Below are positions 5,227 through 44,514 of a stretch of DNA of 44,514 nucleotides, one piece after another. The translations under genes and the position numbers were made by a program. A model generated the notes under the pieces. That model was not told where the DNA came from and ran no database searches. It worked only from the letters and a program-made list of their open reading frames with translations. This DNA comes from Fidelibacterota bacterium (GTDB lineage: Bacteria > Fidelibacterota > UBA2242), in the NCBI GenBank assembly GCA_023229045.1, contig JALOAB010000002.1:1-44514 (forward strand). Reading direction: 5' to 3'. How positions within the stretch are numbered: position 1 is the stretch's first letter; each line of letters begins with the position of its first letter.

Positions 5227-5435
5227 AGTTGATAAAGAAAATAACCAAGTTTTTCAGGAAGCACGATTTCGAGGAATCTTCGAGTTTAATCCAGCTTCCT
5301 GATGGCGCAATTATACCTTGGGGTGTCTTAACTTGCCGTAAGTGCGGAGATAAGAAGTTGTGGATTATTGCTTTGTCTGGACTTATGGCTTTTTTATTTT
5401 ATCACGGTTGCGATAGAAAGGAGCGTGTATCATAG
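5223..5435 (+). CDS. Hypothetical protein (70 aa, one hydrophobic segment, CxxC)
   Basis: ORF track. ATGA overlap with the terL stop. Confidence 0.45.
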   Translation: MKLIKKITKFFRKHDFEESSSLIQLPDGAIIPWGVLTCRKCGDKKLWIIALSGLMAFLFYHGCDRKERVS

Positions 5436-17900: not shown

Positions 17901-19193
17901 CCGACTATGACTTGGAGTGAAGGATATTGGAGTAATTATAGGGGCTGGCCTAAGACGGTCGAAACTCATCAGGAACGACTCGTTTTCGGCGGGTCGAAAT
18001 CTTTCCCGCAGACTCTATGGTTCGGCAAGGCTAATCCAGATAATTACGAAGATTTTACAGAAGGTGCTCTTGATGACAATGCCTTTACCGTAGCCCTTCC
18101 GGGACAGAATCCTATCCAGTGGGTAAGCAGCAGGGATTATTTAATGATAGGAACTTCAGGTTCAGTAGGTAAATGGGGCGAGCAGGGCAAGCCCGTTACT
18201 CCTACCAGTCCGAGCTATCAGGAACAGTCTCGCGTAGGTTCTTCTAAGTTAATGAATGTTCTGGCCTCTGACGCATTGCTTTATATCGAAAGAGGGGCAA
18301 TGAAGGTCAGGGAATTTGTGTATTCACTTCAGTATGATAAGTATATGTCACCTGACTTGACCTTACTATCGGAGAATATTCTCGAAAGCGGAGTCAGGGA
18401 TTTGGTTTTTCAGGAGAGACCTGAGCCTATTTTGTGGTGTGTTAAGAACAACGGTGATATAGCCACAATGACATATCAGAGAGAACAATCTATCACAGGC
18501 TGGGCGATACATAATACTGACGGTGATTTCGAGTCTATTGCCAGAATACCGGGCGCAACAAGTGAAGATGAGATTTGGGTAACAGTGGCAAGGGAAATCG
18601 ACAGTGTTACAAGACGATATATCGAGCAGTTTCAGCCGAGAGATTGGGGAACTGATATTAACGACTGTTGGTTTGTTGATTGTGGACTTGCTTATGACGG
18701 CGTGGATGGCAATAACTTTGACGGGTTAGACCACTTAGAAGGGTTAAGACTGTCCATTCTTGGCGATGGCGTTATCGAGCCTAACGAAGTTGTAACTTCT
18801 GGAGAGATTACTATCGACCGAGACGCAGGGCGTGTAACTGCCGGACTGCCTTTTACTTCAGTAATCGAGACGCTTCCTTTGTATTTTGACGAACAGGACA
18901 AAGCCCACAATAAGAAGGTAACTACATTAGGGTTTGATTTATACAAGACTGGATATTGTAAATATGGGGTAGGAACTGATTCGACTTTAATGAATATTAA
19001 TTTCGAGAACGATATGAATACCGACCCTAACGCCACTGTCCAAGACCTCTATACCTCTGTATATAAATTAATGGGCGTAAGATGCCCTTGGGGTTCGTTA
19101 CAGAAGAACACTATAAGACTTGAAAGTGATGCACCTCTGCCATTAACTTTACGGTCAATATCATTAGATTTGAGGATTTATCCGCCGCAATGA
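14955..19193 (+). CDS. Nozzle / tail tubular protein B-like (gp12-like) with nested LamG and discoidin-like inserts (about 1412 aa)
   Basis: MRYTPTLTSFNNGQVSPLMEARTDFDKYKSSCRRLENMFVTAQGPVTRRPG resembles the conserved gp12-type N-terminus (from memory). LamG signatures: IDNVMIFNKELSAGEVLALY and IDNIAIFDVNLTAAEIAGLY. F5/8-C-like block: NQWIGQIFG..IKRIKIHP..IEASKDGVTYVKV. Start 14955 overlaps the upstream stop; the alternative start 15015 removes the hydrophobic leader. Confidence 0.65.
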   Translation: MRKILWLLILLSVLCIAADEMRYTPTLTSFNNGQVSPLMEARTDFDKYKSSCRRLENMFVTAQGPVTRRPGTKYICEVKDSNYPTRLIPFEYSTEDTYIIEAGEEYMRFFRSGGQILTGQGTEYLGALTPVAHWTCNDDEPSTTVVDAMGSHDGTATTYTSNLSEVGNVNDCFNLGGDRYFAVPDHADFTFDDSGDNPLTLTGWFFVTDTGETQTLIAKWEDGVAQEYKLWMDKDRKLTLTLSTAIANLSGNCVSQWKLNETSGTTITDSQGTQDGVASTDTAVLMAAGATANTGTSFDLDNQYYVNVADHASHTFGNGAADSAFSLAAWAYVPQNPADTIISKRDDTSGALKREYILYASLSDIYFTISDNSTGGYRRVQSNSNYFNWSPSWGWHFIVATYDGTGGTNAQNGMEIYIDGVNETNARESSGTYVAMENTAAPVLIGAHEDTSGVITGLWNKRIDNVMIFNKELSAGEVLALYNGGEGTENIVIGSTTYAKTDEAIDIGWHFIAVTYDATGGATAADHITFFIDGSEVASTAYNNAAYTNMSNSAANVTVGSENGQHNWASRIDNIAIFDVNLTAAEIAGLYTVVPYEITTPYDSNEIWDLKYTQVDNEMYIVDGNHIPQRLARAGHIDWTLSDFDYSTGPFMAENKDTSITIDPPEAASDITSGDYAIASTETAGYTKDEAFDNLYLVVGNAWRATGKENQWIGQIFGAPKTIKRIKIHPCVYESNLDMCMKYIKIEASKDGVTYVKVPINRWLGRCESYNGDEAWVDYITTYAEYIDLYLNNDTAYQYWRVWIYDNWGDALTGVMEIEMFEKQSGVYTASSNIFNEGHTGSIWRINQERGTSILKGTAAAAAINADRTYVSNTTPWFSGGYSFVTNNSSPNFTVTLQRSTNWGATWQSALTPLNSADFDNPAETEKTGAIYRVKISDYVSGTCNYTLTITDQTNHGIIRINSYVSPTSVIATELVPLVHSDPTMTWSEGYWSNYRGWPKTVETHQERLVFGGSKSFPQTLWFGKANPDNYEDFTEGALDDNAFTVALPGQNPIQWVSSRDYLMIGTSGSVGKWGEQGKPVTPTSPSYQEQSRVGSSKLMNVLASDALLYIERGAMKVREFVYSLQYDKYMSPDLTLLSENILESGVRDLVFQERPEPILWCVKNNGDIATMTYQREQSITGWAIHNTDGDFESIARIPGATSEDEIWVTVAREIDSVTRRYIEQFQPRDWGTDINDCWFVDCGLAYDGVDGNNFDGLDHLEGLRLSILGDGVIEPNEVVTSGEITIDRDAGRVTAGLPFTSVIETLPLYFDEQDKAHNKKVTTLGFDLYKTGYCKYGVGTDSTLMNINFENDMNTDPNATVQDLYTSVYKLMGVRCPWGSLQKNTIRLESDAPLPLTLRSISLDLRIYPPQ

Positions 19194-19603
19194 CAAACGA
19201 ATTAGATACAAGGCCGATGAAGATTGAGCATTTCCTTGCTGTTATGGAACAGAACGAAAAGTTCTACCCTGAGTACGCCAAACTTAGTTTGGAAGATAAA
19301 ATCAAGGTCGCACAGTTGAATATTGACACTGGAATAGCCGAATCTCATTATATAGACGGCAAACTAATAGGTGTTACAGGAATAAGGTACAGGGGAATCG
19401 GAGAAGCTTGGTTCATCGTGAACCCTGAAATAAGGGCTAATAAATTCCTATTATTTAAAAGAACTCAAAAGACGTTACCGAGAATGAGAGATGCCATAGG
19501 AATCTGGCGGTTATACGCAACCAGTAAGATTAGTGAAAACTTCTTAAAACATTTAGGATATGAACCTGAACCGACAATGTTTTGTTGGACACGAACAGAA
19601 TGA
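19190..19603 (+). CDS. GNAT-like acetyltransferase-fold protein (tentative)
   Basis: DGKLIGVTGIRYRGIGEAWFIVNPE...ISENFLKHLGYEPE resembles GNAT beta4-alpha3 and the C-terminal ..FL..LGF.. pattern. ATGA overlap with the nozzle stop. Confidence 0.35.
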   Translation: MTNELDTRPMKIEHFLAVMEQNEKFYPEYAKLSLEDKIKVAQLNIDTGIAESHYIDGKLIGVTGIRYRGIGEAWFIVNPEIRANKFLLFKRTQKTLPRMRDAIGIWRLYATSKISENFLKHLGYEPEPTMFCWTRTE

Positions 19604-20262
19604 ACGAATACTTCAAACAGCAGTGGCGAAAAGCGATAGAATCTCAGCCGTTCTGGGAATCGGTACACAGAAGATATGACCCTGTTTCAATTACTTTAAT
19701 TGCGGTAGCTGCCACAGCCGGTGGCATTGCTGCTTATTCTTCTTATCAACAAGGCAAAGAGGAAGAAGAATTAGCCAAGCAGAGAGCTGCGATTGACCAA
19801 GAGAACGCTTTAATGGCCGAACAGGAAGCTGCTGACCAAGCCCGAATTGAGGAAGAAAAAGGTCAGAAACTTCTTTCGAGACAAAAGGTGATGTGGGCTG
19901 CGTCAGGGGTAAGGTCTAATGTCGGCGCACCGTTGGTAGTAGAAGCCGAGACAATGAGGGATATTTCAGTTGAAAAAGGATTTATCTTAAAGAGAGGCCA
20001 GAATATGGCTCGTAATTACCGTATGCAGGCTGCGTATGAAAAAGCTTATGGCAAGTCTCAGAAACGGCAGTCTAATTGGGCTATGATGAGTACCCTAATG
20101 GGTGCAGGTGCACAAATAGGTTCGCAGATGTATGACGCAGGGTTATTCAGCCGTTCTGGCAATGGCACTCAAACGCCAAAGATAGGCGGCACGGGTTTCT
20201 CCGGCAGTAAGACTTATAGAAGCGACACAGGTTATAATTTTGGTAATATTTGGAAATCGTAA
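19600..20262 (+). CDS. Internal virion / ejection-type protein (TM helix plus coiled coil)
   Basis: Start at MNEYFKQQW (ATGA overlap). Contains ITLIAVAATAGGIAAYSSY followed by an E/Q/A-rich coil. Occupies the gp14 position. Confidence 0.5.
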   Translation: MNEYFKQQWRKAIESQPFWESVHRRYDPVSITLIAVAATAGGIAAYSSYQQGKEEEELAKQRAAIDQENALMAEQEAADQARIEEEKGQKLLSRQKVMWAASGVRSNVGAPLVVEAETMRDISVEKGFILKRGQNMARNYRMQAAYEKAYGKSQKRQSNWAMMSTLMGAGAQIGSQMYDAGLFSRSGNGTQTPKIGGTGFSGSKTYRSDTGYNFGNIWKS

Positions 20263-21888
20263 ATGGATATACCACTCTTTCAGCGCGAAAAAACAGCAGG
20301 CTTTACGCCAATGCCGAAACCGCCTTATGAACTGGCGGACAAAAGCGGCCAGCAGCAGTTTGCTCGTACTATGGGCGCGATAGGAACAAACCTACTCGAT
20401 AAGTACCTGCAAGCTCGTCAGGCTAACGAGGAGAGTCAGTTTATCGGTCAGGTCAAGTCTGCTCAGGCAGGTTTTAGGAATTGGCTGCAAGAGAACCCTC
20501 AGGCTACGCCGGAAGAAATGTTCGCCGAGCGGGATAAGATGGTTAAGGGTATTGATGACATAAGCGCAAACAATAAATTTTTGCCCGCCACTAAGAATTA
20601 CATTAAGAATTTCATTGCCTCTAATAAAGAGAAAATGATTAAAGACGCTGACTACGACATTACCGCTATCGGTATGCAGCAGCAGATGACACAGCTTAAC
20701 GCCAATATCGACTTGCTTGAAATGGAAGGTGATTACGCAGGTGTCGAAAAATTGGTTGACGATTCTCCATTAAGTCAGCCGGAAAAAGACCTTGCCAAAG
20801 CGAAGGCCAAAGTGAAGATAGATACCCTAAACCGCGCCAGAGACATTGAGGCGGTTAGGGCTAATTATCAGGCTGTAATAGATAACGGTGGCACTAAAGA
20901 GCAGGCATACCAAGTTGTTGATGAAGGAGTTAAACTGTTTGGTTTATCTGCAAAAGAAAAAGAGACTCTTGGCAACAACCTTGATAATTACGTTGAAGGC
21001 AGGATTAAGAAAGCCGCAGATAGTAAACACGAAAAAACTATGTCTGCTTATAAAGATTTTGCGACCAAGCTTGTTACTACCGATGTATCTATGAATGACA
21101 TAGAATCGGCTGGCTTTGATAAGGACGTAAAAGAAGGTTGGCAGGCTATTATCAAAGGTTCGACCGAGCCTGCACCATTAGCAACTACCGGAGTGGGTTA
21201 TTCGGCGGCGTTAGATTCTGTGATTAGCAGTCAGGTTATCGGGAAAAAACAGGCTTATGACGAAATATTAAAGGCAAGATTTATTGATAAGACAATTAAT
21301 AATGATACTTATTTGTGGGCTATATCAAGAATTGAAAATCCCTATCCTAAGCATATAACCGTAATGGTAAAAGGCATTACGAAATCAGCAGAAAGCTATT
21401 ATTACCATAAGGGAATTGGTATTTTGGGGCGTGATTTTTTGACGGATAAAGAGGAGCAGTTACTTGGTGAAAAAAATGCGGCGTTTATAAGCTGGCTCGA
21501 AAATGAAAGTAAAGACGGTAAATATCCTGACGGTAAGACTATGTACTCTAAAATGAGGGAAATTGGCGTTGCTATTGAAACACCTGAAACATTACCGAGA
21601 GAGCCTATTATTGCACCTAAAAAAGCAGACCCCTTATACATTACTAATGACGAAGATTACGATAAACTTGCTGGTGGGACGAGATTTTATGACGCTCTTA
21701 CCGGACAATGGATGATAAAACCCTCTAAGACAAGTATAGGTATTAGGGATATACAAAATGACGAAGAAACAGTCAGGACGTGGATGTTAAGCCCCGAACA
21801 ACCGATAGTAAAACCTTCTGAACAGCCCATAGACAAAAAACAAATTGAAAAATGGGAATCAGAATTTGGCATAGACAGGTATAAATGA
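20263..21888 (+). CDS. Internal virion protein (541 aa)
   Basis: Called from position after nozzle/gp14-like, size and helical composition. No catalytic motif seen. Confidence 0.5.
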   Translation: MDIPLFQREKTAGFTPMPKPPYELADKSGQQQFARTMGAIGTNLLDKYLQARQANEESQFIGQVKSAQAGFRNWLQENPQATPEEMFAERDKMVKGIDDISANNKFLPATKNYIKNFIASNKEKMIKDADYDITAIGMQQQMTQLNANIDLLEMEGDYAGVEKLVDDSPLSQPEKDLAKAKAKVKIDTLNRARDIEAVRANYQAVIDNGGTKEQAYQVVDEGVKLFGLSAKEKETLGNNLDNYVEGRIKKAADSKHEKTMSAYKDFATKLVTTDVSMNDIESAGFDKDVKEGWQAIIKGSTEPAPLATTGVGYSAALDSVISSQVIGKKQAYDEILKARFIDKTINNDTYLWAISRIENPYPKHITVMVKGITKSAESYYYHKGIGILGRDFLTDKEEQLLGEKNAAFISWLENESKDGKYPDGKTMYSKMREIGVAIETPETLPREPIIAPKKADPLYITNDEDYDKLAGGTRFYDALTGQWMIKPSKTSIGIRDIQNDEETVRTWMLSPEQPIVKPSEQPIDKKQIEKWESEFGIDRYK

Positions 21889-24227
21889 GATACCATACAG
21901 AAGCAATTACGTTAGAAAGATTCGACCCTGAAAGTGATGGTTATGACTATCAGGCTGCGATTGACTCTGGCAATATAGCTGACGAAAAGACTAAACATTG
22001 GGGTTCTATCGACCCCCGAACAGGTATGGTTCTTAAAGGTAAAAATCACCCGACTTGGAATCAAATGGTTGAAGAAGAAGTCAAACTTGGCAATACCGTT
22101 ATTAAAGCTGATAATGGCCGTTATTATTCTGTAAAATTACCAAAATATTTATCGGAAGCCAAAATTGCCGAGCCGGAAACCGGATTCGAGGATAATACTC
22201 AAAATGTCTTAGAGCGAGCGAATCGAGATTTTGATTTTGCGGTAGAAAACAATTTACCTCTTGACGTTTTTGACGCGCTAAAAAGGGAGTGGGCAACATC
22301 AAGTGGATTACAGAAAAAAGTACCGTTTTACGGCGGTCTTTATGGTCTTTATGAACACAGTGAAATGATAGATACAGCCCAAAGATTAAAAAATCCAAGT
22401 CGATACGAAGAAGCGTATTGGTATGAATATCAAGATGCTCAAACTCGTCTGCCTCAGGAAAAATTAGATGAGATGTTCGGGGACAAAGAAAAATTTATAG
22501 AGCAGTTTAAACAGCAGGACGAAAAAGTAATATCGGCCTATTTGAAGTATATATCAACTGATAAAACAGTTATGAACAAGATTGCTACGGGTGTATCAGT
22601 CTTGCCGACTTGGGCAATCGAGTTTTGGGCTACTGGCGGACTGGCCTCTTTAGGTGATGACGCTGCAAGAAAAGCCGGAGAAAAAATATTAGGTGCTTAC
22701 GCTAAGACAACGGTAGGTAAAATGGCTATGTGGTCTGCTCAGATAAGCGCAGGCGGCGTTACCCGTTCTGCCGGATTAGGTCATCAAGTCTTAGAAAAAA
22801 TGTCACAAAGACAGTTAGACGTTGTTTTAGGTCTTAGAGAAGAAGAAGGCTGGGCAATGTCGGCTTTGGTTGCGTGGGGTGATACGGTTATTGAGGCAGC
22901 ATCTGAATCGGCGGGCGAGGGACTAACTACGGCTGGCGGCGTGGTGTTGGGCAAACTACCATTTGGCTCTAAAGTCGTTCCTGCCCTTGAAAAGGCTTGG
23001 ATTGCAGCTACTGGAGGCACTAAAGGTGAATTTGCCAGAAAACTGTTCTCTAAGGGCGGCTATTCTAATATCTTAGGTGAAATCGGCGAGGAAAGAATCG
23101 GTACAATTCTAAGGGCTGTAACTGAGGTAGATGACTTTGGATTGGGCAAAGATGCTTCAATGATAGACCGGCTAAAGACCGGACTCTTGCAGGATATACA
23201 TAACATTGGCGTTGAGATAGGCGTACTGTCTGTTCCTATGGCTGGACAGTTTGCTTTGAGTCAGGTTGCCGAATTAGGCCGAGAAAAGTCTGATTTTGAC
23301 TCTACGCAATTCGACCAGAAGGAACAACTTGAGCCGACACCATCTGCGGAAGTTATTGAGGATATTACCGCAGACACAGAAGGTAAGCAGCCACCTTCCC
23401 AGCCCCCCACAGAGAAGCCTGCGGAAAGACCAAAAGAGCCTGAAATTACAAAACCAGTAACCATTGAAACAGCTAATACCAGTAAAGAAGTTGATGAAAT
23501 TGCGAAACAGATTATATCGCAAGGAATAGACCCCACTAAAACATCGGCAAGACAGGCTGATTTACAGGAAGATAGAGCGTCTTTGGGGCTTGATGGCATT
23601 GCTTCAGCAGAACGTAAGGCTTGGCAGGTATCGCTTCAACAGGCCAAAGACCGCAATATTATAAGCTCGGCTTTGAGAATAGCTGCTGAGATAAATGCTA
23701 ATCCGAGACCGTTAAATGATGTCGAAACAGCAGGCTTGGTAATGAAAGCAGCACAGTTAAAAAGAGAGCATAAAAGTTTAATGCAAGAGATGGATAAGTT
23801 AACAGAAAAGGCGGATATTAATTCAAAAGCTACACAAATAGACGCTGTTGAGAAGGAATTTGACGCTCTTACGCAAGCTATTTATAAAAGCGGCACTGAA
23901 AAAGGCAGGGCGTTAGCCTCACAGAAACTAACCATCAATCAGGATTTCGACTTACTATCCCTGAAGAATAGGGCTAAAAAGAGTAAGGGTCGAGAACTGA
24001 CAGAAAAAGAAACTGCCGCACTCGAAGAAAGAGCCAAAGCCCTTGATGTCAGGGAGAAACTAATAGCGCAGAGAGAAAAACAGATTAACGAAAAACAGGT
24101 AAAGCGAATTATAAAAGAGGGCAGTATCAGTAGGTACGCAAAAATGAACAGGTCTGAAATTGATTTGGAGTTGGATTCGCTTGTATCGAGGACGAAACAG
24201 TTAATCAAAGAAGGATGTTTAAACTAA
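21885..24227 (+). CDS. Internal virion protein (780 aa)
   Basis: ATGA overlap with the upstream gene. Has a central hydrophobic/Gly-rich block, a Pro/Glu-rich linker and a C-terminal coiled coil. Confidence 0.5.
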   Translation: MRYHTEAITLERFDPESDGYDYQAAIDSGNIADEKTKHWGSIDPRTGMVLKGKNHPTWNQMVEEEVKLGNTVIKADNGRYYSVKLPKYLSEAKIAEPETGFEDNTQNVLERANRDFDFAVENNLPLDVFDALKREWATSSGLQKKVPFYGGLYGLYEHSEMIDTAQRLKNPSRYEEAYWYEYQDAQTRLPQEKLDEMFGDKEKFIEQFKQQDEKVISAYLKYISTDKTVMNKIATGVSVLPTWAIEFWATGGLASLGDDAARKAGEKILGAYAKTTVGKMAMWSAQISAGGVTRSAGLGHQVLEKMSQRQLDVVLGLREEEGWAMSALVAWGDTVIEAASESAGEGLTTAGGVVLGKLPFGSKVVPALEKAWIAATGGTKGEFARKLFSKGGYSNILGEIGEERIGTILRAVTEVDDFGLGKDASMIDRLKTGLLQDIHNIGVEIGVLSVPMAGQFALSQVAELGREKSDFDSTQFDQKEQLEPTPSAEVIEDITADTEGKQPPSQPPTEKPAERPKEPEITKPVTIETANTSKEVDEIAKQIISQGIDPTKTSARQADLQEDRASLGLDGIASAERKAWQVSLQQAKDRNIISSALRIAAEINANPRPLNDVETAGLVMKAAQLKREHKSLMQEMDKLTEKADINSKATQIDAVEKEFDALTQAIYKSGTEKGRALASQKLTINQDFDLLSLKNRAKKSKGRELTEKETAALEERAKALDVREKLIAQREKQINEKQVKRIIKEGSISRYAKMNRSEIDLELDSLVSRTKQLIKEGCLN

Positions 24228-26287
24228 TGGCTGACTGCACTGAATTAGCTGAAAATATCGTCCAGATAGGTATGAACCTTGCTACCAGAGAAGATATTAA
24301 AACCTTCGATGATATGGTTATGGAAATGCTGAAACTTTTCCCTGAATTGTCGAGAGAAGGTATTTCACAGGCATTCTTAGAGGTTCAAGAATCCAGAAAA
24401 AAGGTCACTGCCGACATTCAGAAGAAACTGACAGCTATTTATAACGAGCCGAAAATAGAGAAGAACACAAAAGATAAAATCAGCGAATTGAATAAGTTCT
24501 TAGAAACTGGCGAACTACCTGCCAAAAAGAGCAAAAAACCAGCCCCAATGAAAATAGAGCAGCTTCGGGCGACAAGAGATAATCTTCGTAAATGGCTGGA
24601 AACAAGTGACCCTGCTATGAAGAAAAAATTAGGTCAGGAACTAACTGAACTGGTTGGCCAGATAGAATCCGGTGAAATTCAGATGGAACATCGAGAAGGA
24701 AGGTTGCACGATGAAGTCCAGCAGATTAAAGACGAAATAGACAGCCTTAAAAAGCAAATTACTGAATCTAAATTAGAGCAGAAACTTCAGGATAAAATTG
24801 AGATTTTGCAGTCCCACTTGGAATCAGGAACGTTACCCAAGACTAAGACCAGAGATATAGCAGGTTCGGAATCAGTTCAAATGCTCAAATCAATTATTTA
24901 CGACCTTAGAAAAGAGCTTAACCGCAGTGAGCCTGCCAGAAAAAAGAGAATTGAAAAGAGTATTGCTGATTTAGAACAGAAACTTAAAACAGGCGATATT
25001 CTACCCAAACCCAAACCACCGCTGGCTGAAAGCGAAGAATTAGACAAATTGATTTACCAAAGGGATTTACTTAAAAAAGAAATTCAAGACGAGATACGAA
25101 ACCTCAAGCCCTTGACTTTGTGGGGCAAAGTAGGCGCAGGATGGGATTTAGTAAGATTGGTAATGACGACAGGTGAGTTTTCTTTCGCACTTAGGCAGGG
25201 CGGGGTTTATGCAATGACGCACCCCTTTAAGTGGTCAATAGCAATGGTAAACGCTTTTAAAAGTTTTGCTTCTGCTAAAGGTTTTTACGATGTCAATAAA
25301 GATATTTTCTCAAGAGAAAACGCCCCTAATTACAATAAGTCTGGATTAGTGCTTCTTCACGAAGGTATGTCTTTGACCCGTGCTGAAGAAGTTATTATGA
25401 ACTACTGGATAGACAAAATGCCGGTTATGCGCAATTTTAACCGAGCAGCTATCAGCTTCTTCAATACGATGCGGGCGGATATGTTTGATATGGGTTATCA
25501 GACATTAGGCCGAACCCAATCTATGACACAAGGAGAGATGGAAGTTTGGGCTAACTATATTAACGTAATGACCGGCAGGGGTAAATTAGGCATCGGTTCT
25601 ATAAGCCTTGAGCCTGCGGCGTTAGCCTTTAACAGGCTTTTCTTTTCGGCCAGATATGTCGCAAGCCGATTCCAGATGTTGACTGGACAACCATTGTGGC
25701 ATAGTGCAGGAAAAGGCTCGTTACGAGTCAGGACAATGGTAGCTAAAGAGTATATCAGGTTAGGTCTTGGCCTTGCTACTGTCTTTGGATTAGGAATGTT
25801 AGTTGGTGCTGATATTGAAGATGACCCTCGTTCAACAAACTTCGGAAAACTCAAGTTTGGGAATAGAAGGTTAGATGTAATGATGGGGCACGCCCAAGTT
25901 ATAACCCTGATGTCCAGATTATTAAGTGGAAAAACAAAGACAGGAAAAGGTGAAATTGTCGCTTTATACGGCAAAGAAAAGAAATACGGCGGTCAGGACA
26001 TAGAATCCGTTCTTGTCAAATTCCTAAGAAGCAAGTTATCCCCTCAGTTCGGCTTTATGATGAACTTGATAACAAGGGAGACTTATTTAGGCGAAGAAAT
26101 AACATTATTAAATACAACTACGCAACTTTTATACCCTATGACCTATGGCGATATTTGGGATGTTATGAAAGAAGAAGGTATGCCGACTAATGTTTCATTG
26201 TCAATTTTGACGTTATTGGGTATGGGGTTGCAAACTTATGAGCCATATGAGAAAAAATCTGAATTTGGTAAAAGAAAAAGAATTTAA
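24227..26287 (+). CDS. Internal virion protein with coiled-coil repeats and a C-terminal membrane-like domain (686 aa)
   Basis: TAATG overlap; AAGGA 12 nt upstream. Repeated FLETGELPAKKSKKP / HLESGTLPKTKTRD / KLKTGDILPKPKPP. Hydrophobic C-terminal half. Confidence 0.5.
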   Translation: MADCTELAENIVQIGMNLATREDIKTFDDMVMEMLKLFPELSREGISQAFLEVQESRKKVTADIQKKLTAIYNEPKIEKNTKDKISELNKFLETGELPAKKSKKPAPMKIEQLRATRDNLRKWLETSDPAMKKKLGQELTELVGQIESGEIQMEHREGRLHDEVQQIKDEIDSLKKQITESKLEQKLQDKIEILQSHLESGTLPKTKTRDIAGSESVQMLKSIIYDLRKELNRSEPARKKRIEKSIADLEQKLKTGDILPKPKPPLAESEELDKLIYQRDLLKKEIQDEIRNLKPLTLWGKVGAGWDLVRLVMTTGEFSFALRQGGVYAMTHPFKWSIAMVNAFKSFASAKGFYDVNKDIFSRENAPNYNKSGLVLLHEGMSLTRAEEVIMNYWIDKMPVMRNFNRAAISFFNTMRADMFDMGYQTLGRTQSMTQGEMEVWANYINVMTGRGKLGIGSISLEPAALAFNRLFFSARYVASRFQMLTGQPLWHSAGKGSLRVRTMVAKEYIRLGLGLATVFGLGMLVGADIEDDPRSTNFGKLKFGNRRLDVMMGHAQVITLMSRLLSGKTKTGKGEIVALYGKEKKYGGQDIESVLVKFLRSKLSPQFGFMMNLITRETYLGEEITLLNTTTQLLYPMTYGDIWDVMKEEGMPTNVSLSILTLLGMGLQTYEPYEKKSEFGKRKRI

Positions 26288-29856: not shown

Positions 29857-29884
29857 GTCATTTTCTTTTCTCTTCTTCCCTCCG

Positions 29885-29912
29885 AAGCCACTCTCAATGG
29901 GTGGCTTTTTTT
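29885..29912 (+). terminator. Intrinsic terminator ending the rightward arm (convergence point)
   Basis: AAGCCAC-TCTCAATGG-GTGGCTT followed by a T run. Confidence 0.7.
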
Positions 29913-30207: not shown

Positions 30208-30849
30208 CTACTCGATAACTACAATAGCATTGTCGCCCTCATTGTAGGCTCGAAATTCGGCAAGCTCGGCCTGTAACTTCTTGTTTTCTTCCTGCAATCT
30301 TCCAGTTATATCCCCCGCTTGAAAACAGCTTTTTCTTAAACCCTCGTTCTCAGCCTCAAGCTGCTGAATACGCTGCTGTTGGCATTGTATTTTGCACACT
30401 ATCTCTTCTTTTGCTTTATCAAGTACGCAGTTTGAGCCGCTGCATAAAAATATATCATTAACGCCTAACAAGGAGCAAAGAGGTTTTAAAATATCTTGGT
30501 ATTTTCCAACCAAATGTTTAGCTCCTTTATAATGAGACTCAAGATGCTTGATATATAAATCATCTTTCCGTTTTGTTTCTGTAATCTCTTCGGTCAGGTG
30601 GTCGATGATGTCGCAGGCTTGTATTAAATCTTTGTTGAAGGGAGACACAAAACCTTCTAACTCTCTTTTGTAAAACAGCTCGGCTCTGACCCTTTTCGTA
30701 AACTCTCCCTGCTCTGAATCCGAAGGGGGTTGTTCTTGCTTGAGAAGGGCAAGGGCTTCTGACAGTCTTTTTTGGTCAGCCATATAAAGTCGTTCGTTAC
30801 TACTAATTTGCTCAAGTTTTTCTATCGCCTGCTTTACGCTATCGTTCAT
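30208..30849 (-). CDS. Coiled-coil protein (213 aa), unknown function
   Basis: ORF track. AAGGAACAGGAAA upstream. Heptad-rich N- and C-termini. Confidence 0.6.
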   Translation of the reverse strand: MNDSVKQAIEKLEQISSNERLYMADQKRLSEALALLKQEQPPSDSEQGEFTKRVRAELFYKRELEGFVSPFNKDLIQACDIIDHLTEEITETKRKDDLYIKHLESHYKGAKHLVGKYQDILKPLCSLLGVNDIFLCSGSNCVLDKAKEEIVCKIQCQQQRIQQLEAENEGLRKSCFQAGDITGRLQEENKKLQAELAEFRAYNEGDNAIVVIE

Positions 30850-31003
30850 TTTCCTGTTCCTTAAAAACTGTTGAATTACTTAAATAAAACTTCTTATTAC
30901 AAGCCTCGTCCTCGTCAGTTCTCGGCTGATTAAAATACGGGCTTAATTCGTTCCGGCATACGCCGTCTAATCGGCAGATACAGTCTTGGCATTTGGGGGT
31001 CAT
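30839..31003 (-). CDS. Cys-rich 54-aa protein (below the track cut-off)
   Basis: MTPKCQDCICRLDGVCRNELSPYFNQPRTDEDEACNKKF... ATGA overlap with the upstream stop, and overlaps the next start. Confidence 0.5.
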   Translation of the reverse strand: MTPKCQDCICRLDGVCRNELSPYFNQPRTDEDEACNKKFYLSNSTVFKEQENER

Positions 31004-31254
31004 CTGATTTGACTCCAATCTTTTAACATTCTAATCAGCTTTTCAGCACAGCCATAACATATTCTTTTGTCCTTGAAAATATTCCCGCGAAAATTACAGA
31101 TAACGATTGCTTTTTCCCCACATTCATCACAAACATCACAGGCATCAAATTTGCCTTTAGGTTTAGATATTTTTCTATGGCCTTTTCTGTGTCGAGTCTT
31201 GCAGGTATATCCCTCGTGAAGCTTACCACATTTTTCACACAGCACGGTTCTCAT
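31000..31254 (-). CDS. Zn-ribbon protein (84 aa)
   Basis: CEKCGK..H..C, CDVCDEC and CYGC pairs. ATGA overlap upstream. Confidence 0.6.
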   Translation of the reverse strand: MRTVLCEKCGKLHEGYTCKTRHRKGHRKISKPKGKFDACDVCDECGEKAIVICNFRGNIFKDKRICYGCAEKLIRMLKDWSQIR

Positions 31255-31808
31255 TTGAAACTCACTAACGGTTTTATTATATAACGGTTTCTTAATAGTT
31301 TACTTAACCTTCTCGGCGATATTCTTACTTCGCGCTTAAGTAATTTTTTGACAAGGAACAGGAAGAAAGCGACTATTTCTGAGCAGTACCATTTATTCTT
31401 ATCCTGAACCGGCCAAGGCCAGAAGAAACCGAATATGCCTTTATGGTCGTAGGGTTTGCCGATTTCCGACCAAATCGTATCTTTGGCCTTATAGAACAAA
31501 TCATCTTCTACTTCCATTTCCAGACAGTCCCATCGGTCAGGGTGCTTTAGGACTTCATCGGTAGGGGCTACCCTAACGCCCTTCCATTGCCCTCTTGTCG
31601 TAGATGAGAAACATTCGCCGACATAGTACGCATTACCTGAATCGCTCACAATTTCAAAACTACCGTAGTCGTCCGGCCACCATACTTCAACGTGGCTGTA
31701 ACCTTCTGTGCCCCAATTACAGGGCAATACCCCTGTATAGATACTTATGGCATCATCGAGTAGTTTGCCGTCAACTTTGGCTTTATAGAATAATACCCTT
31801 ATTTTCAT
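31251..31808 (-). CDS. Permuted papain-fold (YiiX/C92, NlpC/P60-like) protein, tentative
   Basis: His block GYSHVEVWW lies N-terminal to Cys block KWYCSEIVAFF, the order and CSE(L/I)V motif I recall for YiiX-like enzymes. Strong AAGGAG RBS. Confidence 0.4.
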   Translation of the reverse strand: MKIRVLFYKAKVDGKLLDDAISIYTGVLPCNWGTEGYSHVEVWWPDDYGSFEIVSDSGNAYYVGECFSSTTRGQWKGVRVAPTDEVLKHPDRWDCLEMEVEDDLFYKAKDTIWSEIGKPYDHKGIFGFFWPWPVQDKNKWYCSEIVAFFLFLVKKLLKREVRISPRRLSKLLRNRYIIKPLVSFK

Positions 31809-31960
31809 TTGTCAGTCTCCTTATTAAGCCACTGCCGTCCTATTACATCAACCTCAACAGAGTGCTTTACGTTGACACTCTGGAATTTGAATAAAGCTGT
31901 TATGGCTATTATGGTTATCGCAGCGGCTATTACTATTGTGATTGTTACAGAGGGCTTCAT
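31805..31960 (-). CDS. Single-pass membrane protein (51 aa, below the track cut-off)
   Basis: MKPSVTITIVIAAAITIIAITALFKF.. AAAGG upstream. ATGA overlap with the next gene. The + strand ORF 31809-32018 is its shadow. Confidence 0.55.
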   Translation of the reverse strand: MKPSVTITIVIAAAITIIAITALFKFQSVNVKHSVEVDVIGRQWLNKETDK

Positions 31961-31991
31961 TGGTTTACCTTTAATCGCTGATTACGCTGAT

Positions 31992-32432
31992 TCAAAATTC
32001 GATATAACCTTTTTCTAATAACTCTTTCAAGGTTTCAAAATCTGACCATCTGATTAAAGCGTCTGAAAATCCATACATAACATCAAAATCACCTTTGGGA
32101 AAATCGCCGATGATATATAATTTTTTGCCCTTACCTACTGCATATCCGCCCTCTAAATGTGATGATTTACTGCAAGGCAAAACCATTACGACAACATCAG
32201 CCCAATCAATCCATTTTTTATCTTCGGCAAAAGCCTTCTTGCCTTGCTCGCTGTTTACCATTTTGATAGCGTCTATATTTTCAGGGCTATCGAGTTCTGA
32301 CCAGTGAAACACAAACCGACCAGTACTATCATCACAAAACAAATCAACTTCGTGTCCCCACTGGCGAATTGTCTTTGCTATATCCATACAAATATCACAG
32401 TTTTTCCAAGATGAAGCTATATATACTTTCAT
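31992..32432 (-). CDS. Nucleoside 2-deoxyribosyltransferase-like protein (146 aa)
   Basis: Start at MKVYIASSWKN (GGTGA RBS). WADVVVMVLPCSKSSHLEGGYAVGKGKKLYI matches the Rossmann-like NDT/DNPH1 pattern with a conserved Glu. Confidence 0.55.
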   Translation of the reverse strand: MKVYIASSWKNCDICMDIAKTIRQWGHEVDLFCDDSTGRFVFHWSELDSPENIDAIKMVNSEQGKKAFAEDKKWIDWADVVVMVLPCSKSSHLEGGYAVGKGKKLYIIGDFPKGDFDVMYGFSDALIRWSDFETLKELLEKGYIEF

Positions 32433-32436
32433 TCTT

Positions 32437-32889
32437 TCACCTTTCAAATAACGCCTTCTGGTTTTTCTTGTGCCAACGCCATAACGCCTTTTTATTTCTG
32501 TTAAAATAAGGGGCATAATTTAATGATGATTCCCTAATCTCGACTATGCCGTTATCAGCCACGCTCAATAAGCCAATGCCCTGTTCCATAAATTTATAAC
32601 AAGTTTCGAGTTTTATTTTATCGACTATGACTTTTGGCATTGCTGCGTAAACTTGATTTGCGTATCTTCGGTGATTGCGGCATTGCATAAGCACACCTTG
32701 AAAGTCCCTGATTTTCAACTCAATGGCAAATACACGCGCAAGCTTAGGTATGCGCCTGCTTGTTTGTGGGTAAAACTCAAAGCCGACTACATCACAGTTA
32801 TTCATCGACCAACATTCGTGGGCAACTTCAAGACCTTGGTCAGCAAGCCACTTTATAATATGCAACCGTAAATCCTTTTCCGTTGTCAT
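32437..32889 (-). CDS. PD-(D/E)xK nuclease, MmcB-like
   Basis: CDVVGFEF...FAIELKIRDFQGVLMQCRNHRRYANQVYAAMP resembles the D...E(I/L)K..DF......Y....Y.A.P signature of MmcB-type proteins (from memory). Confidence 0.5.
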   Translation of the reverse strand: MTTEKDLRLHIIKWLADQGLEVAHECWSMNNCDVVGFEFYPQTSRRIPKLARVFAIELKIRDFQGVLMQCRNHRRYANQVYAAMPKVIVDKIKLETCYKFMEQGIGLLSVADNGIVEIRESSLNYAPYFNRNKKALWRWHKKNQKALFER

Positions 32890-34415
32890 TACTTCACCTC
32901 AAACAGAGCCTTCTGGCCCTGACGCTGTTCCTTTACTGGTACGCCGGTAGATACTTCGGTTAGCCTTGTGGACGCAACATCGGTTATATACTTTGGGTTT
33001 AATTCTATGCAGACATACTTTCGGCCTAACTGAGCTGCTACCTTACCTGTGGTGCAACTTCCCCCGAAGCAATCTAAAACAATTCCATCTTTCGGGCAGC
33101 CCGCTAAAATGCAGGGCGTTACTAATTCTTCTGGATATACAGCAAAATGTACACCATTGCCAGTATCAACAGCTATATTCCAGACTGAACGGCGGTTGCG
33201 CTTTTCGTAAGTTTTGCCAAGTATCTCATTATTGCCAGAATGAATTGTGTTGCCATCAGCGTTGGGAATTGCACCGGAACCGTAAATTGCAACCCGACCC
33301 CGAAATCTTCTACCTGAATAGCTTTCCTCATCAACAGAATCTTCTTTTATGGCCTCGTGGTCATAAAAATACTTAGCCGACTTAGACAGTAGGAAAATAT
33401 ACTCGTGAGACTTGGTGCATCTATCCGTAACACTTTCCGGCATAGGATTGTTTTTTGACCATATTATGTCTTGTCGTAACCAATATCCTTGTTCGTACAT
33501 TGTTTTGGGTTCATCAAAATCAATAATGGCTTGCTGTCCGTTATGTAGTGCCATTAAAGATTGGTGGGCTTTTTCGGCTTTATCTCCTGACGATGGACAC
33601 CCCAAGAGTAATCTGGCTTCTTGTTTTTTGCCAACAAGATAAGGATATATCTCTTGAACAACTTCTCTGCATTGATTTGACCGTAAGTTCCATCTATACA
33701 GAGGTATGTTGCGTTTCTTTAATTTAGTTTCTCGTTCAACACAACATATACTACCCATACCTGTTATTACTAAACATCGTTTCACAATAGATTCGTGTGT
33801 ATTTGCGACCTCAAGACCAGCCCCATAACTATCATTTCTTCTGATATATCCTTGTCCATTGCTTTGGCCTGTCTTTCGCTTATGGATAAACATACACCCT
33901 TCACCATCTATCATTGCTGCCAACCATATTCTGTCGGCCTCATTTTTAATCTTGCCAATATAATATGGTTGTTGTAATGCCTTTGCCACAGCCCAAGGAA
34001 TACCACAGAGGTCTTTAGGTTTGAGTCCCATCGGGCAACCTGTTCTTGCTTGATACCCTTTGCTAAGTTTGCCGTGTTTCCAACCAGTGTCATCATCTTT
34101 AGTGCCAACGGCGTGTTGTGTGGCATAGCTATCCCCTAAATTCAGCCACAGCGTTCCTTCTTTTTTCAGAACCCTTTTAACTTCCCTGAAAACATTGACC
34201 AGATTATTGACGTATTCCTCCGGTGTTTTTTCTAATCCTATCTGGCCGTCAATGCCATAATCTCTTAATCCCCAGTACGGCGGACTGGTAACTACGCAGG
34301 ATATAGAATTATCAGGAAAGCCCCTTAATACGTCCAGAGCATTGCCGCAGATAACCATTCCGCTATCGTCCCTGTAAACTACCTCGCCGCTATTAAATTG
34401 GGTCTGCCAGTTCAT
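32889..34415 (-). CDS. Beta-class N4/N6 DNA methyltransferase interrupted by a LAGLIDADG-like domain
   Basis: Motif IV VVTSPPYWG, DLCGIPWAVAKAL, then an insert of about 160 aa (WLAAMIDGEGCMFI...), then GYWLRQDIIWSKNNPMPES and SHEYIFLLSKS, and motif I VLDCFGGSCTTG. The start at MNWQTQF (GAAGG 10 nt upstream) is preferred over the track start at 34463. Confidence 0.8.
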   Translation of the reverse strand: MNWQTQFNSGEVVYRDDSGMVICGNALDVLRGFPDNSISCVVTSPPYWGLRDYGIDGQIGLEKTPEEYVNNLVNVFREVKRVLKKEGTLWLNLGDSYATQHAVGTKDDDTGWKHGKLSKGYQARTGCPMGLKPKDLCGIPWAVAKALQQPYYIGKIKNEADRIWLAAMIDGEGCMFIHKRKTGQSNGQGYIRRNDSYGAGLEVANTHESIVKRCLVITGMGSICCVERETKLKKRNIPLYRWNLRSNQCREVVQEIYPYLVGKKQEARLLLGCPSSGDKAEKAHQSLMALHNGQQAIIDFDEPKTMYEQGYWLRQDIIWSKNNPMPESVTDRCTKSHEYIFLLSKSAKYFYDHEAIKEDSVDEESYSGRRFRGRVAIYGSGAIPNADGNTIHSGNNEILGKTYEKRNRRSVWNIAVDTGNGVHFAVYPEELVTPCILAGCPKDGIVLDCFGGSCTTGKVAAQLGRKYVCIELNPKYITDVASTRLTEVSTGVPVKEQRQGQKALFEVK

Positions 34416-34434
34416 TACTTTAACCTTCGTTCCT

Positions 34435-35325
34435 TTAACACCCGAAATTATCGCTCTCTGCATACTCCATCTGGAGCATTACCGTTAAATCGTCAATCCA
34501 CTTCTGCAATAAAGCGTGATAGGATATACAGCCCCAACCATCATCGCCCCATTCCTCTCCCCAGCTATTCGGGAATATGAAAGCACCTTTTGTATGAACA
34601 TTTGTCTTGGTGTTGCAGATTACCTTATTATCGTCATAGTCCATCAAGGAAACTTCGTGCAGGCCAAGTAATGTGTCAGACGGCAATGGTACTGGTATTG
34701 CGCCGGGGCTATCCCCCAACTCCATAGACGACCTTATCTGTATGGCCGCTGCGACTGGTATGCCGTCCGCAATATACTCTTTAGCCTTTTGAAGCAGGGA
34801 TTGGCGGTTTATTTTAGGCGGGTCAAGCCTAAACCATTTTAGGGATTCATAGTTATCCGCTACGGCCAACTGCATAGCTGTTAATTCCTCGTCAAACCGG
34901 TTGTTATTGTCGTGGTGGTATTTTAGTTCAAGTGCCCCGAATTTCCTTTGTGCGTCCCTTGAGGCCGAGCCTGTCGAGCCTGTATCACCCGTGAGATTCA
35001 ACAGCCATCGGGAACATTTATAATTAAAAAGTGCCGAAGCGTGGAAGTCTTTGCCTTTTGTCCGCTTAATGAAATACCCCGTGTCGTAATACATCGTCCG
35101 TCCGGTACAAGAGCCTAACTCTCTTTGGTTGACTATCGGAGGGCAATAGACCCTATTCTTTGTCTTAGTAGGAATAGACTTACCGAATGGCAGTTTAAAC
35201 TTGGAAAGCATATCCGGCACAGAAACTTTTTTTGGTATAACAGTTTGCTCGGTATAATCATCTTCTGTCCGCACGTCAGGTTTTCTGCCCAGTCCTACCT
35301 TTTGTCCGTTAGATAATGTAATCAT
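34435..35325 (-). CDS. Papain-family (C1) cysteine peptidase
   Basis: All catalytic blocks present: VNQRELGSCTG (Gln, Cys), GLHEVSLMDYDD (His), FPNSWGEEWGDDGWG (Asn-Ser-Trp). Confidence 0.75.
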   Translation of the reverse strand: MITLSNGQKVGLGRKPDVRTEDDYTEQTVIPKKVSVPDMLSKFKLPFGKSIPTKTKNRVYCPPIVNQRELGSCTGRTMYYDTGYFIKRTKGKDFHASALFNYKCSRWLLNLTGDTGSTGSASRDAQRKFGALELKYHHDNNNRFDEELTAMQLAVADNYESLKWFRLDPPKINRQSLLQKAKEYIADGIPVAAAIQIRSSMELGDSPGAIPVPLPSDTLLGLHEVSLMDYDDNKVICNTKTNVHTKGAFIFPNSWGEEWGDDGWGCISYHALLQKWIDDLTVMLQMEYAESDNFGC

Positions 35326-35358
35326 TTTATTTTCCTGTTATCTTATGTATTATTCCCA

Positions 35359-35392
35359 CCCTGCCCGCCATCACGGGACGAGCAGGGCTTTT
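35359..35392 (+). terminator. Terminator-like hairpin oriented against the leftward operon
   Basis: CCCTGC..CCG..CGG..GCAGGG followed by CTTTT on the + strand only. Confidence 0.25.
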
Positions 35393-35407
35393 GCTTCCGT
35401 GCAACTC

Positions 35408-35782
35408 TTACACCGTGTCAGTCTGTGTCTGGGACTGTGGCTGTTCTTCGTCTGGGATTATTTCGACTAACGCTTTCATAACTGCAAATCTTTCGGCTAT
35501 GTCGGCATCGCTTGGCAACCAATGCGTTATTGACTTAGCCATTTCCGGTGCGGCTGTCTGCTCTTTGGCTAATAGCCATTCCCTTAACAACTGGATTAAG
35601 AGCATTAGTAACTGAAATTCTGCCGAACCCATCTTTGGTTTGGATAACGCCAGAATTGACACAGCCTGCGCCTTTAGGTTTGCTACGGTGTCCGTCTCGG
35701 TTTCGACCGGCGGCTCTGGCAAATTGAATAGCTTCCGTAAAATCCTAATAATAATTTTCAGCCAAAATACTTTGTCCTGCAT
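35408..35782 (-). CDS. Hypothetical protein (124 aa)
   Basis: AAGGAG 8 nt upstream. No family recognised. Confidence 0.6.
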   Translation of the reverse strand: MQDKVFWLKIIIRILRKLFNLPEPPVETETDTVANLKAQAVSILALSKPKMGSAEFQLLMLLIQLLREWLLAKEQTAAPEMAKSITHWLPSDADIAERFAVMKALVEIIPDEEQPQSQTQTDTV

Positions 35783-43229: not shown

Positions 43230-43607
43230 CTATCTGTCCAATTCTCGTTTTACTTTCCGCCAATAGTTTTCTGTCGCCTTTTTTTGGTGGCCGTTTGGCC
43301 CGCCATTAAACTTTCTGGCGCGTTCTTCTATTGTTCCGCCGTAGTGATTAAGGTAGATATTCGCCATTTCGATAGACTTGGCTCTGGAGTATCTATCTTG
43401 CAGAGTATATTTATCCTTGCCGATTATGCGGTTCACGTCCTTGACAAAAATAGGGTGAATCTGTAAGCAGCCGACCGCAAGGCCGCCGTCCCCGATTGCT
43501 TGGTCATTGCCAGAGCTTTCGACCTGAATCAAGGCTTGAATCAACCTGTCGTTGTCAGCTTGACTAATCCCTACAATCGTTATAACCGCTAAAATCGTTA
43601 GTCTCAT
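43230..43607 (-). CDS. Lytic transglycosylase (SLT-domain) endolysin candidate with a signal peptide
   Basis: Start at MRLTILAVITIVGISQA. LIQVESSGNDQAIGDGGLAVGCLQI is the SLT E-S motif block. Confidence 0.7.
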   Translation of the reverse strand: MRLTILAVITIVGISQADNDRLIQALIQVESSGNDQAIGDGGLAVGCLQIHPIFVKDVNRIIGKDKYTLQDRYSRAKSIEMANIYLNHYGGTIEERARKFNGGPNGHQKKATENYWRKVKRELDR

Positions 43608-43617
43608 CTTCGTTCCC

Positions 43618-43758
43618 CTAAAGCTCAAAATAATAAATTCTGTGTAGATATTTGACAACTTGTGTCATAGTTTTTGTTATCGCCCTTTGGATAGTCGGTA
43701 ATTCGGCCTGCCAATTTGCCCCCAAAGCCAGAGCAGCTAATAAGATTATAGTATTCAT
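43618..43758 (-). CDS. Small protein with an N-terminal hydrophobic leader (46 aa); holin/spanin-type candidate
   Basis: MNTIILLAALALGANWQAEL.. AAGGAA RBS. Below the track cut-off. Confidence 0.45.
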   Translation of the reverse strand: MNTIILLAALALGANWQAELPTIQRAITKTMTQVVKYLHRIYYFEL

Positions 43759-43804
43759 AATATTTCCTTATAATAACAGGGCTTCCCTGCCCTTCGCCAG
43801 TCCG

Positions 43805-43948
43805 TTATCTCTGGGTGTTTACGGTCGTCCAGTCCTGCAAGTCCTGCCCGAATCCGTGTACGGTCGAGCAGCCGGAGGCCGATAGAACGATGTAAAATAT
43901 CGCTACTATCGCAGTCCACTCAACCACCTTAACAAGTAACTCTTTCAT
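43805..43948 (-). CDS. Entericidin (EcnA/B)-like small lipoprotein (47 aa)
   Basis: MKELLVKVVEWTAIVAIFYIVLSASGCSTVHGFGQDLQDW.. compared with the entericidin mature start GC-N-T-x-R-G-x-G-x-D-I as recalled. AGGAG RBS. Below the track cut-off. Confidence 0.55.
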   Translation of the reverse strand: MKELLVKVVEWTAIVAIFYIVLSASGCSTVHGFGQDLQDWTTVNTQR

Positions 43949-44327: not shown

Positions 44328-44453
44328 ATGATATCACGATATATTGACAATTTGGCATTTTACGGCGGTTTGTGTATCGCAAACCGTATTCTCATCACGC
44401 AGACCGCCACTACATATAAGACCTCGTTTCTTACAAAGAAGCGGGGTTTTTTT
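44328..44453 (+). ncRNA. Candidate ~125-nt non-coding transcript (promoter-to-terminator unit across the junction)
   Basis: Bounded by the 44292 promoter and the 44422-44453 terminator. Contains a CGGTTTG-tgtatcg-CAAACCG hairpin (44366-44386). No SD-preceded ORF. Confidence 0.3.
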
Positions 44454-44514
44454 AAGGATTTAATTACTGGCAGAAGTGCCATATTCTTAATAGAAGTATA
44501 ACTTATACTACTAT
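44388..44514. repeat. Terminal direct repeat, copy 2 (identical to 1-127)
   Basis: Same 127 bases as 1-127. The window ends inside the repeat, so its true length cannot be judged. Confidence 0.95.
44422..44453 (+). terminator. Same intrinsic terminator (second repeat copy), downstream of the 44292 promoter
   Basis: Identical hairpin plus T7 run. It lies about 100 nt downstream of a near-consensus + strand promoter. Confidence 0.6.

Follow-up and report, generated by a model that had tools for sequence, protein, structure and literature searches.

A probable mosaic accessory segment at the promoter-distal end of the leftward operon of a divergent podovirus-like phage

Within the 44,514-nt contig JALOAB010000002.1 (assembly GCA_023229045.1), analyzed here over its whole length (the window), nine consecutive leftward genes at 30839-35782 combine a DNA methyltransferase, a nuclease-fold protein, a protein resembling nucleoside 2-deoxyribosyltransferases (NDT) and two proteins of papain-like fold, several of them joined by overlapping start and stop codons. 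Does such a cassette constitute one system, or is it a collection of genes that happen to share an operon? The original prediction, made from the DNA letters and their translations, favored the former and proposed a translationally coupled module directed against host defense. The analysis presented here points the other way: the interval is probably a promoter-distal, hypervariable accessory segment (moron- or nin-like) of the early/replication operon, with genes that act independently. An anti-defense system of nine genes would have meant a novel type of phage weapon; the evidence says that the cassette is not one.

Junctions, co-occurrence and exchange of the cassette genes

All nine open reading frames (ORFs) were present on the minus strand and are numbered here g1 to g9 from the left edge of the cassette. 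The overlaps reported for them were all reproduced to the base (ATGA at 31000-31003, 31251-31254 and 31805-31808, ATG-4 nt-TGA at 32430-32439 and TAATG at 32887-32891). What did not hold was an unbroken weld of consecutive genes, as the chain is interrupted by spacers of 31 nt (g5-g4) and 82 nt (g9-g8). The weld also runs past the left edge of the cassette, where g1 overlaps by 11 nt with a 213-aa gene (30208-30849, minus strand), the last gene of the leftward arm, whose product gave weak coiled-coil matches only. Gaps of no more than 4 nt were found at six of the nine cassette junctions and at 30 of 53 junctions elsewhere in the genome (Fisher p=0.72), and an equally tight run of junctions occurs in the tail-gene block at 14910-26287. 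Unrelated early genes of Mycobacterium phage Amochick are linked by the same 4-nt chaining. Tight junctions characterize the whole genome and do not single out the cassette. As a caution, overlapping start and stop codons are the background state of phage operons and connect genes that are swapped singly between close relatives. Inside the cassette, no promoter or terminator signals rose above shuffle expectation. Most of its genes start behind their own Shine-Dalgarno (SD)-like motif (10 of 11 sites checked), with g2 as the exception, and the GC content at third codon positions (GC3) ranges from 0.30 to 0.52 between adjacent genes.

The contexts of g3, g5, g6 and g8 homologues were then compared, and beyond this phage lineage none of them united the cassette families, ubiquitous methyltransferases excepted, contrary to what a conserved module would predict. 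When the four proteins were searched against 50,697 GenBank phages using tblastn, the sets of matched records were disjoint: g3 matched only Ralstonia P2-like phages; g5 matched mycobacteriophages and phages of Nostoc, Rhizobium and Paracoccus; g8 matched two unrelated records; and neither g6 nor its family consensus found a match. The 27 IMG/VR contigs bearing g3 homologues lacked g1, g2, g5, g6, g8 and g9 in tblastn and hidden Markov model (HMM) searches, with N6_N4 methyltransferases lying within 10 kb in about nine of these 27 loci. More than one of the g3, g5, g6 and g8 families occurred in none of 54 loci (670 kb) outside L002-L009 and L017-L019, and searches of viral contigs for loci with g8 or g3 as the single query returned nothing. 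Homologues of g6 were seen in six independent contexts, with no cassette partner there other than methyltransferase remnants, which were present only beside the closest homologue (85% identity, L054), and two g6 homologues are adjoined by YqaJ recombination genes. Neighbors were likewise unrelated in the three cellular contexts of g8 homologues, while the five phage contexts of g5 homologues were ordinary replication or nucleotide-metabolism regions of unrelated phages without cassette partners. The g3 homologues, for their part, are mostly embedded in early-gene regions and have neighbors of unrelated kinds. The relatives of g1, g2, g4 and g9 were confined to this phage lineage. Two of these, g1 (30839-31003, minus strand; Cys-rich, 54 aa) and g9 (35408-35782, minus strand; 124 aa), found no family match in profile libraries including Pfam, PHROG and PADLOC; g2 (31000-31254, minus strand; 84 aa), Zn-ribbon-like by its three CxxC pairs, had no significant family match.

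Exchange of single genes was evident from a sibling phage, L017 (48.9 kb), with flanks that are 97.5-98.6% identical to the window at the nucleotide level. In L017, an unrelated gene for 186 aa stands in place of the exact g5 ORF plus its ribosome-binding site (32442-31993), g9 is replaced by genes of 94 and 99 aa, and genes of 353 and 69 aa occupy the place of the 213-aa coiled-coil gene. The RuvC/DUF7694 block, the RNA ligase gene and a LAGLIDADG-type insert within g7 are also missing from this sibling, and every breakpoint between the two genomes falls at a gene boundary. Close relatives do not keep or lose the cassette as a whole: g5, g9 and the LAGLIDADG insert are each gone or exchanged on their own. 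The accessory character ascribed to the genes at the outset is borne out by the same comparison, with g5 and g9 each missing from a sibling of ~98% identity. A hairpin with a 12-bp stem and no U-tract (35358-35388, minus strand; dG -24.3 kcal/mol, z -2.3) occupies the g9-g8 spacer, within a block common to L017 and directly beside the breakpoint of the g9 swap. It may be an RNA processing or attenuation site, or a boundary element between modules.

The permuted NlpC/P60 protein and its membrane-protein neighbor

Methyltransferases aside, conservation across a broad group of phages is seen in the cassette for g3 (31251-31808, minus strand) only, of which 57 homologues were found, many of them on contigs of 43-52 kb. 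Permuted NlpC/P60 enzymes are defined by a catalytic His that precedes the catalytic Cys in the chain, the order being circularly permuted, and by a signature Tyr (Xu et al., PMC3142127). In g3, H39, Y120 and C142 were invariant across 26 sequences, and the His precedes the Cys as in the permuted order. An AlphaFold2 (AF2) model of g3 (mean per-residue confidence score, pLDDT, 88.8) matched BFVD entries with E values of 4e-12 to 1e-3, including entries annotated as YaeF/YiiX C92 or OPG091/G6R (E 1e-5 to 7e-4, TM-score 0.46-0.57), and the protein matched phrog_1128 at 6e-20. The model had no significant match in the PDB, with the solved YiiX/BcPPNE structures outside the top 50, and PDB sequence searches using g3, g5 or g6 (single-sequence or profile) returned nothing useful. 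The earlier designation of g3 as a YiiX/C92-like permuted papain fold agrees with the residue order, and the BFVD matches point the same way; the score against Pfam C92 (PF05708, 15.7 bits, E 0.016) fell below the cut-off of 27. Like YaeF, YiiX and G6R, g3 is a small, cytoplasmic, single-domain protein with His before Cys and an invariant Tyr. Unlike them, it misses the Pfam cut-off, the third polar residue has no assigned equivalent in g3, and its family forms a distinct phage clade (phrog_1128). This PHROG carries the name 'enoyl-CoA hydratase/carnithine racemase-like' (e.g., Ralstonia phage RSA1 ORF26), which appears to be a propagated mis-annotation, because its members have the permuted papain-like fold.

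The adjacent g4 (31805-31960, minus strand), which shares a 4-nt overlap with g3, encodes a 51-aa protein with a single N-terminal hydrophobic helix, in agreement with the membrane protein first proposed, and is kept alongside g3 in the siblings L017-L019. Elsewhere, the gene upstream of the g3 homologue encodes a transmembrane (TM) protein or a lipobox lipoprotein in six loci (L020, L026, L028, L029, L030 and L046). Small lipobox lipoproteins are often translationally coupled upstream of g3 homologues (L026, L029, L030, L046), and a membrane-anchored SLT-like lysin lies directly downstream of the g3 homologue in two loci (L040:9041-9595 and L045:10539-11108). Permuted NlpC/P60 enzymes have been proposed to act as lipid-peptide amidases (PMC3142127), and lipoprotein and lysin neighbors fit the cleavage of lipid-peptide bonds proposed for this fold. 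A conserved pairing of g3 with g2 was considered and rejected, as in none of 28 loci did a protein with at least two CxxC pairs come after the g3 homologue. Both Cys-peptidase-fold families come close to one another in one place only, in L016 (Alicyclobacillus phage MMB025), where a gene annotated as phrog_1128 (1326-1832) lies 1.1 kb upstream of a multi-domain lysin (2980-5241) composed of Peptidase_C1, Ig-like, glycoside-hydrolase-like and PG_binding_1 domains; the phrog_1128 gene went undetected by the g3 HMM at E<=1e-3.

Could g4 and g3, possibly with g2 and g1 and perhaps with g8, form an auxiliary envelope or lysis unit in which a small membrane protein and a cytoplasmic papain-fold hydrolase attack peptidoglycan or lipoprotein/lipid-peptide bonds late in infection? 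Several observations are in keeping with this idea: some g3 homologues are located after tail genes with a coupled TM or lipobox protein upstream (the six loci above), others precede an SLT-like lysin (L040, L045), a role as lipid-peptide amidase has been proposed for the fold, MMB025 has a C1 domain built into a genuine multi-domain lysin and a phrog_1128 gene 1.1 kb away, and the best near-full-length PDB neighbor of g3 is the type VI secretion system (T6SS) effector TseH. However, the TseH match is not significant (E 0.48), most g3 homologues sit among early genes whose neighbors are unrelated to lysis, neither g3 nor g8 has a signal peptide or a wall-binding domain, and the phage already encodes an anchored SLT-domain protein together with small membrane and lipoprotein ORFs at 43230-43948. 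We regard an envelope unit as possible, if on balance unlikely, and it would be compatible with a mosaic origin of the remaining genes. Whatever its substrate, this phage clade within the permuted NlpC/P60 enzymes, with its frequent position beside lipoprotein and lysis-type genes, is worth keeping in view.

The interval at 43230-43948, close to the start of the leftward arm, is itself a likely lysis cluster. It encodes an SLT-domain protein with an N-terminal hydrophobic anchor (43230-43658; PF01464, E 7e-9), a 46-aa hydrophobic ORF and a 47-aa lipobox ORF (LSASGC). With this SLT-domain candidate present, g3 was rejected as the primary endolysin.

The methyltransferase, nuclease-fold, deoxyribosyltransferase-like and peptidase products

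The start of g7 (32889-34415, minus strand) is most likely the ATG at 34415, 19 nt after g8, because it is preceded by an SD-like motif and was selected by the gene callers; the alternative ATG at 34463 has no such motif and would overlap g8 by 29 nt. The product matched N6_N4_Mtase (PF01555, E 3.5e-47) and the PADLOC model MTase_II (E 9e-99). Its motif IV (SPPY, residues 60-63) is N-terminal to FGGSCTTG, the S-adenosylmethionine (AdoMet) motif I near the C-terminus, which gives the order of a beta-class N4/N6 DNA methyltransferase. Of the original description, the methyltransferase proved sound and the LAGLIDADG-like insert is probably so, being homologous to phage endonucleases. The insert (33495-33971, minus strand; 477 nt, 159 aa, in-frame) is missing from the methyltransferases of L017, L022/23 and L049, has a GC3 of 0.30 versus 0.39-0.45 for the remainder of g7, and is flanked by locally divergent sequence. 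Its relatives are free-standing phage endonucleases annotated as LAGLIDADG or HNH (tblastn E 2e-11 to 6e-4); it contains the motif LAAMIDGEG, matched I-OnuI weakly (E 0.22) and had no Pfam match. Its size corresponds to one LAGLIDADG monomer, and it shows no intein (junction residues, Hint blocks) or intron features. Judged by its sequence, the insert is probably a complete single-motif LAGLIDADG-type monomer, in frame and strain-polymorphic, and it may represent an unspliced, domesticated or still-mobile homing endonuclease domain. A reading as an intein was rejected, since the junctions (ALQ/QPYY and KTMY/EQGY) are wrong and the sole HN precedes a Gly.

A second insertion strikes the same gene in other strains. 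At the position corresponding to 34243-34264 of the window, L004 (5584-6284) and L007 (1597-2297) carry ~700 bp with a free-standing HNH ORF (PF01844, 7e-11), which splits g7 just after SPPY into two ORFs, each with a new tail or leader peptide. A group I intron was rejected for this insertion, with no Rfam match at E<=1 in L004:5300-6600, as was a split intein, since the leader of the C-terminal fragment in L004 is only 21 aa and lacks HN followed by Cys, Ser or Thr. Genes of T4-like phages are known to be split by free-standing homing endonucleases, namely mobE in nrdA of Aeh1 and mobA in gene 60 of T4 (PMC2988022). As in these cases, the HNH ORF of L004 and L007 lies within a critical region and leaves two ORFs with their own start and stop, and no intron was detected. 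Unlike them, the gene split by this putative homing endonuclease encodes a DNA methyltransferase; moreover, the window's own allele has another insertion, in-frame and unspliced. A methyltransferase gene struck by two different selfish endonuclease insertions, one of them unspliced and in-frame, is of interest in its own right.

Orphan methyltransferases have been taken up by phages against restriction, with lactococcal 936-type phages as an example (PMC4190342). Like these, g7 is solitary in an early region, belongs to PF01555 and strongly matches Type II methyltransferase models; unlike them, it contains an in-frame LAGLIDADG-type domain, and an HNH gene divides it in other strains. Within the cassette, g7 is the one plausible counter-restriction gene.

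Directly downstream, g6 (32437-32889, minus strand) encodes a stand-alone protein of 150 aa with conserved E25, D33, E57-x-K59 and Q69, of which E57 is invariant and D33 and K59 nearly so. Its AF2 model (pLDDT 92.4) found only restriction-endonuclease-like folds at the top of the PDB search, i.e., SfsA, XisH (probability 0.93), YaeQ, HindIII and BsaWI, all at E>=0.01. The predicted PD-(D/E)xK nuclease was accordingly recognizable in motif and fold, and the MmcB label attached to it was not: PF06319 went unmatched in 10 and then in 44 family members (E<=0.1 to 1). The family comprises ~1,161 representative clusters of stand-alone proteins of ~150 aa (including proteins P0079-P0224) and has no Pfam, PDB, PADLOC or NCBIfam model. 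Such a large family of small PD-(D/E)xK proteins without a database model deserves to be kept on record.

Since g7 matches Type II methyltransferase models and g6 has a fold resembling HindIII/BsaWI-type enzymes (TM-score ~0.46-0.48), the two might constitute a phage-borne Type II restriction-modification pair serving superinfection exclusion, host-DNA degradation or addiction. Their TAATG coupling with a 1-nt overlap, the adjacency kept in L017 and the methyltransferase remnants upstream of the 85%-identical g6 homologue in L054 agree with such a pair. We nevertheless consider it improbable, because g6 matches no restriction-enzyme model (PADLOC gave methyltransferase matches only) and its family is usually not found beside a methyltransferase, with none adjacent in five of the six independent contexts. 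The 1,161 clusters consist of stand-alone proteins, two g6 homologues neighbor YqaJ-type recombination genes, and the strains in which g7 is split by the HNH ORF still carry the locus.

For g5 (31992-32432, minus strand), the match to phrog_12607 (nucleoside deoxyribosyltransferase; E 1e-22 over residues 2-126) supports the NDT-like assignment that had been made, whereas both Pfam models were missed, PF15891 with 19.2 bits (cut-off 30) and PF05014 with 17.9 bits (cut-off 28.8); no PDB sequence match was found for it. The Glu within 'SSHLEGGYAVGKGK' is a candidate catalytic residue, read from g5 alone. A link of NDT to dZ phages has been proposed (bioRxiv 10.1101/2025.10.22.683976). A dZ or hypermodification pathway was rejected for g5, as there were no PurZ/DatZ-like genes among the window products scanned and the sibling lacks g5.

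The papain C1 peptidase called for g8 (34435-35325, minus strand) was confirmed, with a score above the Pfam cut-off (Peptidase_C1, PF00112; 23.8 bits, cut-off 20.7) and an intact catalytic set, Q67, C73, H223 and N253 being invariant in nine sequences. The protein has no signal peptide, and the GC3 of its gene is 0.49. Only 11 homologues were found, and those of 35% identity or less are in cellular contexts; g8 was probably captured from a cellular genome, to judge from these relatives. Like prokaryotic C1A peptidases (xylellain, 3ois; the cellular proteins P0003-P0008), g8 combines a C1 match with Gln, Cys, His and Asn, at 31-35% identity over the full length. Unlike the cellular enzymes, it is phage-encoded and rare, with a detectable relative in two of the 50,697 GenBank phage records, and the N-terminal GW.PD.PD.RD motif of its cellular homologues is degenerate. 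A papain C1 peptidase borne by a phage is rare enough to be worth keeping.

A further proposal would unite g8, g7 and g6, such that g7 marks phage DNA, g6 destroys unmarked host or competitor DNA and g8 removes a host factor, with the LAGLIDADG domain acting as a self-protecting homing nuclease. This survives because the block is intact in both sibling genomes, and we give it little credence. As for the nine genes as one co-functional anti-defense or takeover module of base modification, nuclease and host-factor proteolysis, its overlaps are real, no terminators interrupt it and the methyltransferase, the NDT-like protein and the nuclease fold could in principle all act on DNA, but it appears very improbable: g5 and g9 are dispensable and singly swapped, the coupling from which co-function had been deduced is genome-wide, g5 comes without dZ or hypermodification genes, and the families, with their disjoint GenBank record sets, fail to co-occur in 27 g3, six g6, three g8 and five g5 contexts, an outcome outside the lineage that the original prediction had itself named as refuting the module.

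Genomic setting and comparison with accessory regions of other phages

The window has an exact 127-bp terminal direct repeat (1-127 and 44388-44514) and hence represents a complete genome, ~44.4 kb long and either circular or terminally redundant. The same sequence is present as a 44.5-kb metagenome contig, and at least eight metagenome assemblies contain the same phage, a divergent, podovirus-like and metagenome-derived one; megablast of the region against GenBank phages found no close relative. The rightward genes at 2234-29856 include those for the terminase, the tail proteins and a T7-like portal, the last of these recognized by distant matches only. The long leftward arm ends at 30208, convergent with the tail-gene arm, and a terminator-like hairpin (29884-29908, plus strand; terminator scan) lies between the two. 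The genes upstream of the cassette on this arm are for an RNA ligase, a protein resembling endonuclease I, loaders similar to DnaD and DnaC, a RuvC-like resolvase and a DUF7694 protein. The window contained no tRNA and no Rfam family match. Outside the cassette, L017 differs in a large virion or tail-region protein (L017:17022-19964, 980 aa) with an ART-PolyVal (ADP-ribosyltransferase) Pfam match; its counterpart in the window has 780 aa and leaves ~600 nt of the sibling gene unaligned.

If the cassette is a mosaic accessory segment, its genes would have been acquired one at a time and exchanged one at a time between related phages. The methyltransferase g7 would methylate phage DNA, probably at N4-cytosine because of its SPPY motif, and thereby blunt host restriction; as a conserved gene, it would then have attracted two different selfish endonuclease insertions. 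g6 may serve as a small stand-alone structure- or damage-specific nuclease, as in phage recombination modules, g5 may adjust the deoxynucleoside/nucleotide pool, and g8 would be a cytoplasmic papain-type peptidase captured from a cell. Together with the membrane protein g4, g3 would act as a permuted NlpC/P60 amidase on an envelope substrate, i.e., a lipoprotein or lipid-peptide bond or peptidoglycan. The ATGA and TAATG welds would reflect genome compaction and polycistronic expression and not stoichiometric co-function.

Some points weigh against this interpretation. Canonical overlaps of 4 nt or 1 nt are somewhat more frequent at cassette junctions (4/9) than elsewhere (8/53, p=0.06), in a comparison that is independent of start-codon choice and that would mildly favor a module. 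The contexts sampled for g6 and g8 are few, and many contigs are short. The sub-blocks g8-g7-g6 and g4-g3-g2-g1 are each intact in both sibling genomes, and there may be co-function inside either of them; this retention carries little weight either way, because the two genomes are near-identical. The activities assigned to the genes are predictions from sequence, with g1, g2, g4 and g9 lacking a functional assignment, and individual genes may have a counter-defense role.

The known arrangement that a mosaic accessory segment most calls to mind is that of the nin region and morons of lambdoid phages, where accessory genes are grouped at the far end of early operons. Like these, the cassette lies downstream of replication genes and consists of small, packed, overlapping ORFs that differ in function and include methyltransferases and nucleases, and its genes are exchanged one by one between relatives, in a mosaic manner, with breakpoints at gene boundaries. 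Unlike the nin region of lambda, none of its genes is homologous to nin genes, and it is followed by neither an antiterminator nor a late-gene junction, as the arm ends convergent with the tail genes. In these terms, the region is of an ordinary type, assembled from parts of which some are unusual.

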